Source: a virus
Taxonomy: Duplodnaviria > Heunggongvirae > Uroviricota > Caudoviricetes
Direction: 5' to 3' (one strand)
Virus record (IMG/VR): IMGVR_UViG_2548876950_000015
Span: 1-7,243 of that record
Length of the DNA: 7,243 nucleotides
Both the position numbers and the translations under genes were made by a program. This document shows, piece by piece, positions 1 to 7,243 of this stretch (the stretch's first letter is position 1; every line of letters begins with the position of its first letter). The notes beneath the pieces are model-generated. The model made no database searches and was not told where the DNA came from. It saw only the letters and a list, made by a program, of their open reading frames with translations.

Positions 1-1797
1 TTAGAACTCCTTCACATCTGCGCCAGAAGACACGCTCCAGATCGAAACAGGCGACCCGTTTACACCTATTAACCTTGCTTTCAACCCATTTCCGCTTGCT
101 CTTGGTACGGTTAAATTTGCAGCAGATGGATTCATAGCCCAATCTCCTCCATTTAATATGACACTCATTTCAACTACGCCACCATTATCAATATCTATTA
201 TAGGTGTTTGCACTACCGGGCTTTGTTGATCAATTGGCAGAAAGCCATTGACAATAATAGATGGTCTGAATGATGGGTTTCCCTGAACGCTAACACGAAG
301 TTGCCCACCCTTAACAAATTCTGTTGCACAAGTATTCATGACAATGCAATACGGATTTACAAAATCAAATGCATAGCAAATTGACTCCCCATCCATTGGC
401 GTGCAGTTTTCAGCAGTACAATTGGTCATGGTGGTATATTGCATTCCTGACATTCTAAATGACAACTGGTAACCGTTAACCTGAACAAGGCGCATATCCA
501 TAGAAGTGCCTATTACTTTTATTTGACCATCCCTAAAATCTTCAAATAAAACGCCAGCATATCCTTTCCCTGGATATTGTGGGAAACCGACCATTTCCAT
601 TACGCCAGAGAACGGCACATAAGAGAAGCATCCGATATAAGCACATTCAAAAATTGACTGTCTGATAACTGGTGCTGCTGATTTTCCTAAAAACAGTCCG
701 TAATAATTTCTATAAGAATCTACGTTTTCTTGTGTTAAGCCAAGCCTTCTAAACATGCAGTTTTCAACTCTACCGTTAACACAAAATGAACTCATTGAGT
801 TATCTGTTAGATCCCATTGTTTTGGTATAAAAGCACATAATGCATCCACCTGAAGAATTACTTCTCCATTTTTTGTGAGATCTATTTTGTCATTTGTTGT
901 TTTATAAAAAACTGTCGCTTCAGCCTTTCCCTGTCCTCTAATTCCCATATTGTCATAAATTGGGATTGTTTTTGATGTATTTATGTTTCCAGCAGGAGCC
1001 TCTAGAATGCATTTGTTTGAGCGGGCAAAGTTAGTTGCAAGAGTTATAGCTGTTGCGTTATCTGTGACTCCGTCAGGTTTCACCCCCCAAAATTGCATGT
1101 CGTAAGTGGTAAAATTAATTCGTCTCCATACCATCGTTCCAGTTTCTGGCTTGATTACAATTCCACCATCATCAGCCCACGCCTGAATGTTATCAACAGA
1201 CTCGAAAAAGCCGCCACCAAGGTGGTTTTCAGCATGTGTAGTGCTAGCTGCTGATGCTACGTATACAATCTGCCCTGCCTCCTCCGGAACACAGGAGCGA
1301 AGCTCTGAAAGATTGAGAAAGCGGCCAATAGCGTTAAATCCTGTTTTATCAATTAATGAATCATGTGTAGCTTTCAAGATCTCCAGCTCAATCTTTACGG
1401 TTGTGCCTCCATAACCAACCAGAGATGCGCCATCATGGCCAGAAAGCTCAGCCCTTAACTGATCTGGAGAATATTTCAGTAGATCAGGATAATAGAATTG
1501 TTGTGCACCATACGCATCATACACAGCCATGGAGTGATTCTGTACAGTTACGAACTTGGCAATCTGTCCGTTATATACAGGGTAACCAGCAGCGTTAATG
1601 ATGATTGGTTGCGAAACAGGGACGTGAGAACCATCTTCGTTCTCCACATAAACCTGAATCTGGTTTTCAGGATTTACAGGGTCAGTGTCAATTTTACCAA
1701 TATAAATTTTGCCATTGGCAACCGCTTTAAAAGAACGCGCCATAGTGAAGAGTTGCGAAGGCATCGATACGATCACATTGGCTGTAATGTCTGTCAT
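1..1797 (-). CDS. Tailspike protein: P22 gp9-type head-binding N-terminal domain fused to a divergent receptor-binding domain
   Basis: 598-aa ORF, ATG at 1797-1795 with GGAG about 10 nt upstream, TAA stop at 3-1. The first ~110 residues ([59 protein letters not shown]...KYSPDQ) match, from memory, the conserved head-binding domain of P22 gp9 and the Sf6/HK620 tailspikes. The rest does not resemble the P22 endorhamnosidase body as I recall it. Position after the immI module matches P22 synteny. Confidence 0.88.
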
Positions 1798-1855
1798 TTA
1801 ATTTGCTCCAGATGCAAGGAATCGCCGCAGCATGGCTACGGTGAATTTTGGGCAT

Positions 1856-1880
1856 AAAAAAAAACCCAGCCGAAGCTGGG
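1856..1880 (-). terminator. Rho-independent terminator downstream of the antirepressor-like gene
   Basis: Read on the minus strand: 6-bp GC-rich stem CCCAGC / GCTGGG (1880-1865) with a TTCG loop, followed directly by a run of nine T (plus-strand A-run 1856-1864). Lies about 20 nt after the stop at 1900. Confidence 0.6.
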
Positions 1881-1899
1881 TCGTTGCGTTGGTTATCTG

Positions 1900-2790
1900 T
1901 CAGTAGTTATGTACTGAAGGAGGTAATTCTTTATTCTTAAGTCTCATCCATGCGGAACGATTCGTTGGTCCGTCTGGCTCATTAATATCAACATCTAGTG
2001 TGTGATTGATTAAAACGTCTCTCGCTATATCGATAATACGGGAGAACTCATAACCGCAGTCATGACATCTGCCGGAATAGTTCGATTGAATTTGTTTCAG
2101 CGCCGGATACAATTCGCGGAATAATGCCTGTGAGCGGTTGGCATAATCCCATAACCATACAAGGCTGTTTGCTTCTTTTGCAGAAAGCTCGTTGGTTTTC
2201 TTCTCTTGTTTGCCGATAAATTCACCTTCAAGCACTACCCTGTGGATGTACTCTACGGCCAGCGGGATTTGTTCAATTGAAAGTTCATCAATGCTGTCAA
2301 TACCAAAACGCTGATGAACCATATTGTATGCATCGTCATAGCGAAGTCCTTTCTTTCCTACCAGCATGTTTACTGCATCGCGTAGCGGTGTGCGTTCAGC
2401 TACTGAAGTTTTACCGCCAATACTCTTCCTCTCTTGTGTGGCAGTAACCATTGCGTCATATGCACGGATAACCTTCAGCGCAAATGCTGCGCTAATCCAC
2501 ATGGCGTAGGAGTAAACAAGCTCCTTGCACACGTAGGTTCCACCATATCGACCTTTCTTAGAAAGGACGGGATTCTTATTCTGCATATCCGCAGAATTAA
2601 AAATTTCATTAATCAATTCAATAGTTTCATTTCTACGCATGAAGAAAGCTGGCTGATGTTTTTCCTCCTTTCCAGACGCTACATGAAGGTCATTAAGCGA
2701 GTAACGACCCTCTGAATCCATATGAATCTTGACGTCAGAAATGATGATGCTATTAGTGCAATTTACAGTTGACTTTGCTAAGCTTGACAT
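1900..2790 (-). CDS. KilA-N domain antirepressor-like protein
   Basis: The ORF track extends to 2856, but that start is a GTG overlapping the upstream stop. The ATG at 2790-2788 (MSSLAKS...) has a GAGG 10 nt upstream and puts the KilA-N-like motif ([39 protein letters not shown]) near the N-terminus, as is usual for this family. Family call is from motif recollection only. Position after arc corresponds to ant in P22 immI. Confidence 0.62.
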
Positions 2791-2852
2791 ATCAATAATA
2801 CCTCGTAAGTTTTGTTGATACCGAAGCCCTGACTGTTCCCGCAGTTGGGGCT

Positions 2853-3074
2853 TCACTGTTTTTGTAAGTCACTGTAGCTATAAAGCCACTGACCACTCAT
2901 TTTTGATTTGATTGACTCTACTGAGTCACGGCAAGGAATGATTCCGCCTGACATCATTCTGATCTCCGTAAATTCACCACTCCTTATCGATTCAATGCCA
3001 TCAATGTTAACTAAAGATTTACCTCTACCAAGTGCATTCTCATAGCCAATCTCATCAACCTCAATAAACCTCAT
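2853..3074 (-). CDS. Hypothetical 73-aa protein between arc and the antirepressor-like gene
   Basis: ATG at 3074-3072 overlaps the arc TGA stop (ATGA). A GAGGGG sits about 8 nt upstream. TGA stop at 2855-2853. No family recognised. Confidence 0.4.
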
Positions 3075-3229
3075 GCCGTTATCCCCTCTCTCTTCAGGCT
3101 GTCCAACACTCGCTTGTAAATCTCAGAGTTAACAGATCGCCCGTTCTCTTCAGCTACCTTGCGCACCAAATCCAATACTTCTTTAGGCCACCGCAAATTG
3201 AACTGAGGCATTTTTCTTGCACCTTGCAT
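3071..3229 (-). CDS. arc: Arc-like ribbon-helix-helix transcriptional repressor
   Basis: Manual minus-strand translation gives [52 protein letters not shown] (52 aa), near-identical over the core to P22 Arc as I recall it (MKGMSKMPQFNLRWPREVLDLVRKVAEENGRSVNSEIYQRV...). ATG at 3229-3227 with GGAG 6 nt upstream; TGA at 3073-3071. Missing from the ORF track because it is under 60 aa. An in-frame ATG at 3250 would add 7 residues but has no SD. Confidence 0.85.
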   Translation of the reverse strand: MQGARKMPQFNLRWPKEVLDLVRKVAEENGRSVNSEIYKRVLDSLKREGITA

Positions 3230-3322
3230 ATTCAACTCCATTTCACTCATTGATAGTACCGTACTACTATTGAAAGCGTACTACTACCGTTCTAGCATGT
3301 CAACAAATAAAAGGAGAACGAC
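3230..3322. promoter_or_regulatory. Divergent mnt/arc control region with overlapping candidate promoters and operator-like repeats
   Basis: 93-bp interval between divergent arc and mnt. Inverted repeat TAGTAC-c-GTACTA at 3254-3266 inside GATAGTACCGTACTACTAT (3252-3270), whose flanks resemble the P22 arc operator as I recall it (ATGATAGAAGCACTCTACTAT). Direct repeat CGTACTACTA at 3260-3269 and 3277-3286. Candidate rightward promoter: -35 TTGAAA 3270-3275, -10 TAGCAT 3293-3298. Candidate leftward promoter: -35 TTGACA (complement of 3298-3303), -10 TACGCT (complement of 3275-3280). Confidence 0.5.
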
Positions 3323-3565
3323 GTGGCTAGAAATGATCCACAATTCAACGTAAGAATGCCTGATGAGATAAAACAGCAACTTACGCATATTGCTGCAACA
3401 AATCGCCGCTCGATAAACGCAGAGATTATTTCAGCTATCGAACTATGGATAAAAATTCATAAAGGGCAGCTAATACCTTCAAGTAGTCGAATCCTGACAA
3501 AGTCTGAGCAAGAGGCGTTTGATGTAGCTATTGATGTGTTAAAACGTGTAAGAGATGGAGGATAA
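3323..3565 (+). CDS. mnt: Mnt-like ribbon-helix-helix repressor
   Basis: 80-aa ORF with GTG start at 3323 preceded by AAGGAG (3311-3316). N-terminus MARNDPQFNVRMPDEIKQQL...NRRSINAEI resembles P22 Mnt as I recall it (MARDDPHFNFRMPMEVREKL...NGRSMNSEL). Divergent from arc, as in P22 immI. Confidence 0.85.
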   Translation: MARNDPQFNVRMPDEIKQQLTHIAATNRRSINAEIISAIELWIKIHKGQLIPSSSRILTKSEQEAFDVAIDVLKRVRDGG

Positions 3566-3567
3566 CC

Positions 3568-3801
3568 ATGGAGCAACAACAAGGGTCGCCATTATCATTG
3601 ATTATTATGGTGATTTTTTTCGTTTTTATCTTTTTTATACCTGCGTTAAAAATATCCAAAAAGGCCGGCTTTGACTGGAAGATGGCTGTATGTTTAACAA
3701 TCCCTGGCTTTAACGTGGTGGCGTGGCTCGCGCTTGCGTTCATGGATTGGCCAATTCACAAGTATCTACCAAAAGATGTGAATCGTAAGGATGCAAAATG
3801 A
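3568..3801 (+). CDS. Small two-helix membrane protein, co-transcribed with mnt
   Basis: 77-aa ORF. ATG at 3568 lies 2 nt after the mnt stop, with GGAGG (3557-3561) 6 nt upstream. Hydrophobic stretches LSLIIMVIFFVFIFFIPAL and MAVCLTIPGFNVVAWLALAF, basic C-terminal tail. No family recognised. Confidence 0.6.
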   Translation: MEQQQGSPLSLIIMVIFFVFIFFIPALKISKKAGFDWKMAVCLTIPGFNVVAWLALAFMDWPIHKYLPKDVNRKDAK

Positions 3802-4007
3802 ATAAAAAACAGCTTATTAAGTCAAAAACGTCAAGCAAGGAAGAATTAGAGAAGGAGCTAAACTCCCTGAAATATGCTCTGTGTCTGGTTTACTCAAGAC
3901 TGCCAATGGAAGATAAAAACGCCATTTACAATGAAATGATTAGCAGCCTTGATTTTAACGATAGAGACCTAGCATCCCACCTCAACAGCTTCCGCGTCCC
4001 TGAGTAA
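3798..4007 (+). CDS. Hypothetical 69-aa hydrophilic protein, translationally coupled to the upstream membrane protein
   Basis: ATG at 3798 overlaps the upstream TGA stop (ATGA); AAGGA 6 nt upstream. Charged, helix-prone sequence. TAA stop at 4005-4007. Confidence 0.5.
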   Translation: MNKKQLIKSKTSSKEELEKELNSLKYALCLVYSRLPMEDKNAIYNEMISSLDFNDRDLASHLNSFRVPE

Positions 4008-4167
4008 TTCTGTTGCGGATTTGCTTCTTGCGGTGGTTTAAGCTGGAGAGCTTGGCTTCTGCTTCTGATATTTGCGCATCAAGATCTTTAAGCTCAAGAT
4101 CTGAAAGTCGCTGGTCAAGCAGGGTTTGGTTCAACTCAATGTTGTTCAGGCGTTCTTCTATGGTCAT
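3982..4167 (-). CDS. Hypothetical 61-aa coiled-coil-like protein
   Basis: ATG at 4167-4165 with AAGGAG 5 nt upstream. MTIEERLNNIELNQTLLDQRLSDLELKDLDAQISEAEAKLSSLNHRKK has heptad-like Leu/Ile spacing. The longer track ORF begins at a GTG (4215) with no SD. Its 3' end overlaps the 3' end of the 3798-4007 gene by 26 bp. Confidence 0.4.
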   Translation of the reverse strand: MTIEERLNNIELNQTLLDQRLSDLELKDLDAQISEAEAKLSSLNHRKKQIRNRITQGRGSC

Positions 4168-4308
4168 GATTTCTCCTTGTTGAGGTTGATGTGAAACGAT
4201 TGATTGTATACGCACTCTTTTGTTAGCTAGTAGCTTTGCTTAATCGCAAGATAAAGTTTCTGATTAATCCCTAAAAATCAAAAAATAAAGTTAAAACAGG
4301 TACATGAT
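4168..4308. promoter_or_regulatory. AT-rich divergent intergenic region, presumed promoters for the 3982-4167 (-) and 4309-4512 (+) genes
   Basis: 141-bp AT-rich spacer between two divergently oriented small genes, with several TTG-containing hexamers (for example TTGTTA 4220-4225, TTGCTT 4236-4241). I could not pair a convincing -35/-10 by eye. Confidence 0.3.
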
Positions 4309-4512
4309 ATGGAATGGATCATAGGATTTGTTGTTCTTATCTTCATAGCCAGTATGTTTAAACCAAGAAGTTGCGATATCTGTGGTGCTGGATTTAAGAA
4401 AAAGTACTTCACATGGACTATCGATGGAAAGAAACAGCATCTTTGTCCGTACTGCAACAGTAAAATGGAGAGGCGCAACAGCGATAGGCGCTTTAAGGAT
4501 CGATTTGGTTAA
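4309..4512 (+). CDS. Membrane-anchored zinc-ribbon mini-protein (N-terminal TM helix plus CxxC-x23-CxxC)
   Basis: 67-aa ORF MEWIIGFVVLIFIASMFKPRSCDICGAGFKKKYFTWTIDGKKQHLCPYCNSKMERRNSDRRFKDRFG: one hydrophobic helix, then two Cys pairs (CDIC, CPYC), then an Arg/Lys-rich tail. TAA stop at 4510-4512 is followed about 20 nt later by the terminator hairpin. SD is weak. Confidence 0.55.
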   Translation: MEWIIGFVVLIFIASMFKPRSCDICGAGFKKKYFTWTIDGKKQHLCPYCNSKMERRNSDRRFKDRFG

Positions 4513-4530
4513 CCATTTTATCTCCAACAA

Positions 4531-4560
4531 AAAACCCACCTGACGGTGGGTTTCATTTCT
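4531..4560. terminator. Bidirectional rho-independent terminator between convergent genes
   Basis: Hairpin CCCACC-TGAC-GGTGGG (4535-4550). On the minus strand it is followed by TTTTTTGTTGG (strong, serves the lipoprotein gene ending at 4560). On the plus strand it is followed by TTTCATTTCT (weaker, serves the 4309-4512 gene). Confidence 0.7.
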
Positions 4561-4979
4561 TAATCTTGCTTTGTAGACGGTATAAGGGATGCGTTTGCCT
4601 CTTTTGGCTTCAAGGTATACATCCCACCATTAAATGGATCAACAGCAAGCCAACCAATTAACCCACCAAACACAAGGTTTCCACCAATATACCAACCATT
4701 AGCATTGGCTTTGATTGGCAGGGTAACTGGTTCGTACCCATCCTTTTCCATAGTGATCTGGTAACTCTTTTTGCCAAAATAACTACCATCTGACTTGGCA
4801 AGAGTTACTCCTTGTGGGGTCTTACCTTGCGCAACAATCACGCCTGATTCGTCTTTTACCTTAAAGCTCGCACCGGAAGGATTGCTGTTCACTTGCACAA
4901 GCTGTGTTTCGTCACCAACAATAGTTGCGCACCCAGATAACATGATAGCGCCAGCAACGACGCCAATAATCCTCTTCAT
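4560..4979 (-). CDS. Lipoprotein with a PEGA-like beta-rich domain and a Gly-rich C-terminal segment
   Basis: Signal peptide with lipobox: MKRIIGVVAGAIMLSGC. The track ORF starts 4 codons earlier (ATG 4991, MEID...) with no SD; ATG at 4979 gives the canonical lipoprotein N-terminus. The mature region (NSNPSGASFKVKD...GKTP...ITMEKDGYEP) resembles a PEGA-type fold by motif recollection. C-terminus GWYIGGNLVFGGLIGWLAVDP is Gly-zipper-like. TAA stop at 4562-4560, then the strong terminator. Confidence 0.7.
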   Translation of the reverse strand: MKRIIGVVAGAIMLSGCATIVGDETQLVQVNSNPSGASFKVKDESGVIVAQGKTPQGVTLAKSDGSYFGKKSYQITMEKDGYEPVTLPIKANANGWYIGGNLVFGGLIGWLAVDPFNGGMYTLKPKEANASLIPSTKQD

Positions 4980-5074
4980 ATCAATTTCCATATCTAAAAA
5001 ACCGGAAACATCCTAATGACAAACCATTCAAATGTGAAGCACGAGATAAGATCAATCCATCCGTGGACGACTAA

Positions 5075-7243
5075 TTACTCCTGTGTCATTCCGCTTAGCG
5101 ATGCCACAATCCCAGCCCTCGACAAACGCTGGAACTCTTCGTTTCCTAGTGCATCGCGAATTGCTTTTACGGCGGCCTTATTTGCCATAAATCTGCGTTC
5201 CGCCGCCGCTAATGCGCCATCACTTGCCCCAACCTTAACTGCCTTTGTTGCCTCTTGAACAGCCTTTTCAATAGCGTAACGACCACTTCTGGTTGCGGAT
5301 AATTTCGCTATCGATCCTTTTGCTATCGCATCAATTGCTCCACCAGCAGCGCCACCCACTATTGCTCCAATAACACCTCCTCCAGAGAACCCTGCGATAG
5401 CGCCAGCGGTTGGAAAAGCGCCAGACAATACGCTCTCTAAAACTGGATGAAGGCCATTCTCAAGAGTGCTAATGGCTGGCATAGAGCGCCCTGTTTGTTC
5501 AACATATCGAAGTGGCTTTGTTGCAGCTCTTGCAAGTTCTCCGTATGAACTTGTAATCCTGCCAAGTTCTGGAGAATATCGACTAATTGCCTTCACGTTT
5601 TGTGGGGTAAGAATAGTCGCGATATGCTTAATTCCAGCTCCTTCAGACTTACCTCCGCGTACCCCTTGCGATACCGCATCTTGTAATATTGATGCAATTG
5701 CTGGCGCGCGTTCCGACTCAGGTAGGGCGCTTATTATTTTATGGAACTGACCTGTTCCACTTTTTGCTGAACCCTGTAACGCCTTAGATCCATTAGTTAC
5801 CAACTGATCAGTTGCAAGGTCTCTACCAAACGCTGCTTCAGCCTGTTCTTGTGCTGTAAATCTTGCCTTTGACAGATCATTAGCTTTTTGCCAGTCATCA
5901 AGAAAATCGCCATTTTGAGCCATTATGCGCATATCTTCCGTTGCTGCATCACGAAGCTCAGCCATGCGCCTTGCCGTATTTGCCTCACCAGACCTTATAT
6001 ACTTCTGCTCTGCGTCAGCAAGTTTACTTCGCCATGCCTTCATGGCATCAAACGTGATTCCTTTTTTACCAGTTTTAGCATAAGCAGATGCGAATTGTTT
6101 CATCTCAGGAGTTAGCGGCATGCCAGCCAAAATATCACCCTGAATTGTAGCGTTCAGGTTTGACATTCTGGCCTTTGCGTCAGGCATCGTGGAGCGGACG
6201 CTATCCCATGCGGCCTTTTCTGAATTTTTCATTTTATCAATACTTGCCAAAACCCTTTGTTTTATGGCTGCACTTTTTTCTGATGCAGTTCCTGCTTCAG
6301 CCCCAAACTCATCCAATGCTGAGTTAAATTTCGACTCTATTTCACTGAATGCTTTGGTGTGTGCATCCTGTGTAATTCCGGGCTTTGATGCCAGAATCCC
6401 CTCCGCCTGAGCAAGACCACGACTACCTGATCTCATGCCAGGAGTTAATGCGTTGATATCTATTCCAGCAGTATCTGCTGCTTTTGCTATTTCGTCTGAC
6501 ACATTAGCTGACTGTCTGGCAATAATCTCTCTTCCTGTACCAGACTTTGCCATTTTCGAAACATCAGCAGCGGAATTTATTGCCCCGCCACCAAGAACTT
6601 GAGGTGATTTAGAGGTTAAGATCCTTCCAGCCCCAGAAAGTATCCCCTGAGCACCAATATTGATACCACCGTTAATGGCAGCATTTTGTGCAAAGTCGCC
6701 CTCCTGATTTGCAGCATCAGCAAGAGAACCTGCAATCATGTTTCCTGCGGAACCGATATCTCCAGCGAGCTTTGCTGGCGCTCCAGCAGCTTTTGCCGCT
6801 GTGCCAATTGGCAGGAGATACCCACCAATTGTTTCACCGGCTTGCGCGTAAGGGTCTGTCGGTCGATCGACAGGGCGATAAACATCATCCAAAACCTTGG
6901 GGCCGCCAAGCCCCTGGCTGATTGCATTAATCAGACTTGCGCCACCCTGCAATACGTCAAATGGTATGTTTACCAGACCACGACCAGCCTGTTCTGCAAT
7001 TTGCCCTGCACTTTGACCACCTGTGAGCCAATCACCAGCTTGTTGCATCAATGATGGTTCTTCTTTCTGCTGCTGAGGCGGAGGGTATGCTGCATAAAAC
7101 TGATCTCTTGCTTCAGCCCATTTGTCACCAGCCTTAGGGGCAACAACCTCATCAAAATATTGCGCTTGAGCCTGTGCTTTCTGTTCTTCAGTTAACGCCT
7201 GATACTGTGGAGAAGCGATAACATCTTTCCATGCTTTAGCCAT
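5075..7243 (-). CDS. Phage DNA-ejection / DNA-transfer protein (P22 gp16/gp20-like by position and composition)
   Basis: 722-aa ORF; ATG at the window edge (7243-7241), so the true N-terminus may lie outside the window. TAA stop at 5077-5075. Ala/Gly/Gln-rich, low-complexity and helix-prone, with a Gly-zipper segment ([31 protein letters not shown]) near the C-terminus. It sits on the distal side of the accessory island, where P22 has gene 16. Product assignment is by synteny and composition, not by remembered sequence identity. Confidence 0.6.

Follow-up and report, generated by a model that had tools for sequence, protein, structure and literature searches.

The stretch of DNA analysed here, referred to below as the window, comprises 7,243 nucleotides (positions 1 to 7,243 of the IMG/VR virus record IMGVR_UViG_2548876950_000015), and the gene at its start, at 1..1797 on the minus strand, is the tailspike gene of an Escherichia coli prophage that is P22-like (Lederbergvirus) and complete. 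With a probability of about 80%, we read this protein as a spike whose beta-helix recognises the O103 O-antigen and most likely acts as an endoglycosidase, and which came by its receptor module through a cassette exchanged with phages of the genus Uetakevirus. Taken by parts, an O103 O-antigen-binding spike is the most likely assignment, and hydrolysis of that O-antigen is probable. The initial annotation of the window had given the same interval, 1..1797, without a strand.

The gene, equivalent to P22 gene 9 and Sf6 gene 14, is an intact open reading frame (ORF) of 598 amino acids, with its ATG at 1797-1795 and its TAA at 3-1, the stop codon being included in the interval above. A GGAG ribosome-binding site lies 8-9 nucleotides 5' of this start codon. 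About 65 nucleotides 5' of the ATG, and 3' of ant, stands a strong intrinsic terminator (1863..1882, minus strand) formed by an 8-pair stem followed by a T9 run. P22 has a terminator between ant and its tailspike gene, in the same layout. On the prophage map, the tailspike gene closes an entire block of P22-like morphogenesis and immI genes (portal, scaffold, coat, gp4, gp10, needle, DNA-transfer proteins, mnt, arc and ant) and is followed by an acyltransferase gene and then by the host torT, every P22-like structural and lysis gene of the source prophage being annotated as intact. The remainder of the window corresponds to the immI and ejection-protein region of such a phage, with the gene order ant (KilA-N plus P22AR_C), a 73-residue ORF, arc, the divergently transcribed mnt, several small ORFs, a 143-residue lipoprotein-like ORF and a 722-residue DNA-transfer protein. 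Arc, Mnt and Ant were all detected in the window, so that the spike gene occupies the location of a Lederbergvirus tailspike, after mnt-arc-ant and adjoining conversion genes and att. P22 gp9 has the same position after mnt-arc-ant(-sar), behind a terminator, and the order of tailspike, O-antigen acetyltransferase (oac) and int/att is also that of Sf6.

Residues 1-113 (1459..1797, minus strand) constitute the head-binding domain that anchors the spike to the virion, and matched all 113 positions of PF09008 with an E-value of 2.5e-65. In phmmer searches against the Protein Data Bank (PDB), residues 1-118 aligned with residues 1-118 of Sf6 gp14 (7sg7; E=2e-62, with about 85% identity as counted from the alignment), which is the closest solved head-binding domain, and the N-terminus aligned with residues 1-117 of the P22 tailspike at about 71% identity (E about 1e-48). 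The structure of this domain is already solved in both P22 and Sf6. The P22/Sf6-type head-binding domain that the initial annotation had assigned to the first ~110 residues is therefore borne out. At the DNA level, the 5' ~345 nucleotides of the gene are 83-91% identical to many P22-like tailspikes. A helical neck or linker follows (residues 114-148; 1354..1458, minus strand), assigned from alignments and from the structural model; it is the P22-lineage version, is identical in the spike of strain S56 and its like, and shows only weak similarity to the corresponding part of the Uetakevirus TL-2011b spike, confined to the motif ELxxxxGxxLVGYGxxTVK (residues 118-148). In the AlphaFold2 model, helices near the neck span residues 111-119, 123-126 and 134-149. 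The model of the N-terminal domain itself was poor (predicted local distance difference test score, pLDDT, <50), because the alignment used mixed three anchor types.

Beyond the anchor the resemblance to P22 ends. The full-length chains of P22 (2xc1, 8tvr) and Sf6 (7sg7) gave no significant phmmer alignment past residue 118 even at a maximum E of 1, the P22 chains being aligned over residues 1-117 only, with no similarity to the P22 endorhamnosidase body (GH90; gp9 residues ~120-666); no sequence match was found between this body and the tailspike bodies of P22, Sf6 or HK620. A database search with residues 119-598 yielded 225 homologues, for which PF27114 is the precomputed family, and the 90%-identity cluster of the tailspike contains 273 member sequences. 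This receptor-module family sits behind three types of N-terminal anchor: the P22 head-binding domain PF09008, in proteins of ~597-603 residues from E. coli, Yersinia and Proteus; an epsilon15/phiV10-type anchor of ~216 residues, in 697-residue proteins from E. coli, E. albertii and Cedecea; and a PF18668 anchor of the TSP1/gp66 type, in ~600-residue proteins from Cronobacter, Cedecea, Enterobacter and Proteus. The spike of the lytic phage PAS7 also belongs to it. Pfam gave a sub-threshold match of the body to a pectate-lyase-like RHGA/epimerase family, and NCBIfam gave no match for either the tailspike or the acyltransferase.

In the AlphaFold2 monomer model the body was predicted with high confidence (pLDDT for the most part above 90, starting near residue 230) as a right-handed parallel beta-helix, the fold expected of a Lederbergvirus tailspike. 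Foldseek identified tailspike depolymerases as its nearest structural relatives, and a 56-member profile of the family detected the depolymerase gp86 of Acinetobacter phage Belisarius (24qi) in the PDB with E=1.9e-12. Belisarius gp86 and AS12 gp42 (6eu4) are 18-20% identical to the body; their targets are capsules of A. baumannii and not an E. coli O-antigen. No sequence similarity links this body to that of Sf6, which is an endorhamnosidase specific for the S. flexneri Y O-antigen, and the fold match to it is only generic (Foldseek, 2vbm, E=9e-6). P22 gp9, an endorhamnosidase with a Salmonella O-antigen as receptor, ranked only 37th in Foldseek, with a TM-score of 0.28. Thus, the initial claim that the last ~480 residues are unlike the P22 body is true at the level of sequence (phmmer, E<=1), while at the level of fold both are parallel beta-helices, which is also the outcome of the structure prediction that the initial annotation had called for.

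The receptor-binding module (residues 149-598; 1..1352, minus strand) is common to gp48 of the epsilon15-like phage TL-2011b (YP_007001999.1). The two proteins have unrelated N-termini, that of TL-2011b being an epsilon15/phiV10-type anchor of 216 residues in a protein of 697 residues versus 598 here, and are ~97% identical over residues 149-598. Accordingly, nucleotides 446-1797 of the gene are 95% identical to the TL-2011b tailspike gene, and nucleotide 446 (window 1352) marks the left joint of the exchanged segment. The P22-like 5' end joined to a segment found behind another anchor in the unrelated phage TL-2011b directly shows the domain shuffling that had been proposed from the sequence. 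The DNA match continues without interruption from nucleotide 446 through the intergenic spacer and almost the whole acyltransferase gene, 2505 nucleotides at 90% identity overall, being ~100% over the first ~800 nucleotides and 80-95% thereafter. The gene concerned lies directly past the end of the window, matches phrog_3333 (E=2e-79) and encodes an O-acetyltransferase, of which TL-2011b carries a homologue next to gp48. As the match runs through this gene, the exchanged unit is the receptor module together with a conversion (O-acetyltransferase) gene. We propose that the partners in the exchange of this ~2.5-kb cassette were epsilon15-like phages (Uetakevirus) infecting O103 strains, TL-2011b being an example.

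A further mosaic breakpoint was located inside the beta-helix, at about residue 261 (1015..1017, minus strand), from megablast matches (H37/H38) that cover nucleotides 34-783 of the gene and from the alignment. The spikes of S56 (locus 2968-4761) and APEC20/16 (locus 3965-5761), both O103 strains, are 96-98% identical to this one before residue ~261 and ~60% after it, and their distal part is close to prophage spikes of Cronobacter sakazakii (P0072) and to P0078-type sequences. The two alleles differ at three of the seven predicted pocket residues described below (D282/S, N464/E and D523/G) and keep the four glutamates. They also differ in what follows them: the S56 and APEC20/16 spikes are always followed by gtrABC and not by the acyltransferase, while the allele studied here is always followed by the O-acetyltransferase gene (in the window's prophage, TL-2011b, 19KM2326N, GPEC349-628, GSH8M-2 and the remnant in strain 33-6). 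These observations allow the speculation, which we offer tentatively, that a receptor module and an O-antigen-modifying gene may travel across phage genera as a "recognise-and-convert" cassette in an arms race, with alleles tuned to acetylated versus glucosylated O103 chains and with recombination near residue 261 swapping only the specificity-determining distal helix. A separate C-terminal module, considered on account of matches to nucleotides 1302-1793 in strains 33-6 and 58-3, was rejected, as the context of those matches is that of deleted prophage remnants retaining only the C-terminal 148 codons of the spike.

The hosts of the spike point to O103. Typing of the O-antigen was indirect: the loci were found in GSH8M-2 and 19KM2326N, and their wzx-wzy segments were searched against all genomes. 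The wzx and wzy genes of 19KM2326N are named "O103 family" by the Prokaryotic Genome Annotation Pipeline (PGAP), and its segment identified 32 O103 genomes among 5426 complete E. coli genomes. All four carriers of an intact spike were O103, as were two carriers of a remnant and two carriers of the diverged allele. The corresponding hypergeometric probabilities are 1.5e-8 (four O103 strains in six carriers) and 2.5e-17 when all are counted (eight in ten). Besides the source strain, three O103 strains have near-identical intact copies; the copy of 19KM2326N is intact, 98.6% identical and located in a prophage at argW, and the host of TL-2011b is O103:H25. For the O103 carriers, the sources were chicken, dog and human and the countries Korea, Switzerland, the USA, Russia, China and Norway; their prophages occupy at least two attachment sites (torT and argW) and belong to two phage genera, a diversity that makes a clonal artefact unlikely. 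The carriers being E. coli O103 and not Salmonella O:4/O:9, the prediction in the initial annotation of a polysaccharide specificity and a host serotype different from those of P22 holds. The possibility that all carriers were O184 was rejected, since the GSH8M-2 clone alone is O184. As a separate observation, the first GT2 glycosyltransferase gene of the 19KM2326N O103 cluster (locus 15732-16612) is apparently split into a 540-nucleotide coding sequence and a 171-nucleotide "hypothetical" one, so this lysogen may make an altered O-antigen or none.

Published work on related receptor domains leads to the same serogroup. Pas et al. 2023 (Virol J 20:174, PMC10408124) defined an O103 subtype of receptor-binding proteins (RBPs), by at least 30% amino acid identity over the receptor domain together with agreement in host serogroup, that comprises Ro103C3lw, TL-2011b and the RBP of a Lederbergvirus prophage in the O103 strain RHB38-C21. 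The module described here is ~97% identical to TL-2011b from residue 149 and 49-51% identical to PAS7, and it occurs in a lysogen with the O103 O-antigen gene cluster. PAS7, which was added to the subtype later (Pas et al. 2024, PMC11522302), forms plaques on an O103 strain, produces halos and has a spike 51% identical to that of TL-2011b, in which two acidic clusters were predicted. When grafted on an R2 tailocin, the PAS7 receptor domain kills O103 strains (PMC11762384), and CBA120 fitted with the receptor domain of Ro103C3lw yields a luciferase signal specific to O103 (PMC12737597). PAS7 (Cepavirus) and Ro103C3lw (Kayfunavirus) share with our spike the receptor-domain family and the predicted pocket glutamates, and host range and grafting show that they target O103; they differ in being lytic phages with other anchors, and pocket positions D282, N464 and D523 vary within the family. 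From the host association and from the grafting of homologues that are ~50% identical, we infer that the O103 O-antigen is the receptor.

Candidate acidic residues were mapped by alignment from the prediction made for PAS7 (PMC11522302), and their conservation was evaluated over 56 family members. Four glutamates stood out as candidate acids: E293 (919..921; PAS7 E177), a catalytic or substrate-binding candidate at a position that is acidic in 100% of the members, E384 (646..648; PAS7 E268), which is 98% conserved, and E463 (409..411; PAS7 E347) and E493 (319..321; PAS7 E377), both invariant, all on the minus strand. The equivalents of the PAS7 pocket are D282, E293 and E384 for the first cluster, and E463, N464, E493 and D523 for the second, N464 standing beside E463 in place of PAS7 E348.

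In Sf6, the gp14 tailspike is an endoglycosidase of beta-helix fold that forms trimers and has its active site between subunits. Our spike would presumably form trimers and act as a hydrolase. Residues 1-113 would attach the trimer to the tail hub, as the corresponding domains do in P22 and Sf6, the hub genes gp4, gp10 and needle being present in the prophage; residues ~114-148 would form the helical neck; and the beta-helix of residues ~149-598 would recognise the O103 O-antigen of E. coli and cleave it as an endoglycosidase through E293/E384 and/or E463/E493 in its groove, which would let the virion work down to the outer membrane. The adjacent acyltransferase would presumably modify the O-antigen of the lysogen and thereby block superinfection, as the oac of Sf6 and the phiV10 acetyltransferase modify lysogen O-antigens against superinfection.

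Several points weigh against this reading, some concerning the receptor and others the chemistry. The lineage of GSH8M-2 and WP8-S18-CRE-02 is O184 and not O103; the receptor domains used in the grafting experiments are only ~50% identical to this module, and binding and cleavage of O103 by this very spike are predicted. It could be argued that the module recognises some other surface glycan (a D-Fuc3N-acyl epitope of several O-types including O184, a capsule or the enterobacterial common antigen) and that its link with O103 stems from a few lysogenic lineages having spread clonally. This would fit the O184 carriers, the occurrence of 55-62%-identical homologues in non-O103 Cronobacter, Cedecea, Proteus and Yersinia, and the fact that the O184 and O103 clusters have their first five genes, rfbB-rfbA-fdtA-GNAT-fdtB, in common at 92% DNA identity, because of which both clusters probably contain the same 3-amino-3,6-dideoxyhexose derivative. 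However, the variety of sources, countries, attachment sites and genera speaks against clonal spread, and the grafted homologous domains were O103-specific in panels that included other serogroups. Moreover, the O184 copy is a relic: the GSH8M-2 prophage is degraded and riddled with insertion sequence (IS) elements, one of which, an IS3, interrupts the spike gene. The exception could be explained by a later switch of O-antigen, which the relic could predate and which would have been eased by the 5' rfb genes common to both clusters, or by a shared Fuc3N-type epitope. Altogether we consider recognition of another glycan quite unlikely, and retain the O103 O-antigen as the likely receptor.

With regard to the chemistry, no enzymology or solved structure has been published for any member of the O103 RBP subtype, of the seven pocket residues of PAS7 three are variable across the family, and the placement of the candidate acids follows an in-silico prediction for PAS7, used here with a monomer model. 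The beta-helix might only bind the O-antigen, or modify it by deacetylation or as a lyase, without glycosidic hydrolysis, and the sub-threshold resemblance to the pectate-lyase-like RHGA/epimerase family would be in keeping with such an activity. Against this stand the multilayered halos of PAS7, typical of a diffusible depolymerase, the four near-invariant glutamates in the predicted pocket and the tailspike depolymerases that are its nearest structural relatives, and we regard a non-hydrolytic spike as unlikely. The O103 repeat unit is not known to contain a uronic acid, and the lack of one would rule out beta-elimination; the exclusion of a lyase depends on this chemistry. As for the gene being a functionless relic of a cryptic prophage, the source chromosome is strongly rearranged relative to MG1655 and rich in IS elements, and related copies are decaying, as in GSH8M-2 and in the remnants of 33-6 and 58-3. 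The ORF in the source genome is nevertheless intact, with its ribosome-binding site and in a prophage whose structural and lysis genes are all annotated as intact; near-identical intact copies exist in the three other O103 strains, and the 90%-identity cluster holds 273 sequences, all of which makes a relic highly improbable. An O103-recognising, hydrolytic spike is thus the explanation that we prefer.

In terms of novelty, the spike is a case of ordinary tailspike domain swapping, and the pairing of this receptor module with a P22-type anchor had already been catalogued. High identity over the full length to a characterised tailspike, which by the initial annotation would have made the protein unremarkable, was not found, yet the receptor module falls within the O103 RBP subtype, which is published and in part validated and already has a member from a P22-like prophage. 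That member, the RBP of RHB38-C21, compared here through its published description, likewise has a P22/HK620-type anchor (ending at residue 123), and a receptor domain grouped with those of TL-2011b and Ro103C3lw; host serogroup and the underlying reasoning, horizontal transfer of receptor domains, are also shared, and its description makes no mention of a co-transferred acyltransferase or an internal breakpoint (PMC10408124). What is added here are the precise positions of the joints, the transfer of the acyltransferase along with the receptor module, the two O103-host alleles with different conversion genes and a quantified host association. Tailspike modularity and the receptor-domain subtype having both been published, the concepts are unchanged and the practical value is modest. 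A natural and intact combination of P22-type anchor and O103-type receptor domain could be used in detection reagents for O103 Shiga toxin-producing (STEC) and avian pathogenic (APEC) E. coli and in the retargeting of tailocins or phages, and residues ~115-598 could serve as an expression construct with which to obtain the first structure or enzymatic characterisation of an O103 depolymerase. The natural joints at residue ~149, between genera, and at residue ~261, within the helix, are relevant to the engineering of chimeras, and an acyltransferase moving with the receptor domain bears on why some O103 strains resist O103-directed phages.

Several other features were observed in the window. 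The ant gene (1899-2856, minus strand; KilA-N plus P22AR_C, phrog_2812) starts at window 2789 in RefSeq and at an upstream GTG at 2856 in the ORF list. Opposite its translation start, on the plus strand, lies the sar antisense RNA (2792-2857; Rfam RF00262, 61.7 bits, E=3e-11), to which a 14-bp terminator-like hairpin at 2823-2854 belongs. In 19KM2326N and GPEC349-628 the N-terminal modules of the ant counterparts are different, which makes ant itself mosaic among prophages with the same spike. The 143-residue ORF (4560-4991, minus strand; phrog_6823) begins like a lipoprotein (…LSGC) and weakly matches a PEGA domain (E=0.004); it is located between the DNA-transfer protein gene and immI, in the position of P22 sieA, and is a candidate moron of the superinfection-exclusion or envelope kind. 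Finally, the moron slot proximal to mnt contains a cluster of small ORFs (3568-4007, plus strand; 3982-4215, minus strand; 4309-4512, plus strand), among them a predicted membrane protein of 77 residues (phrog_32536), a 69-residue product (phrog_16466), a coiled-coil-like product of 61-77 residues (phrog_7586) and a zinc-ribbon-like ORF of 67 residues (CxxC…CxxC) that has no PHROG match.
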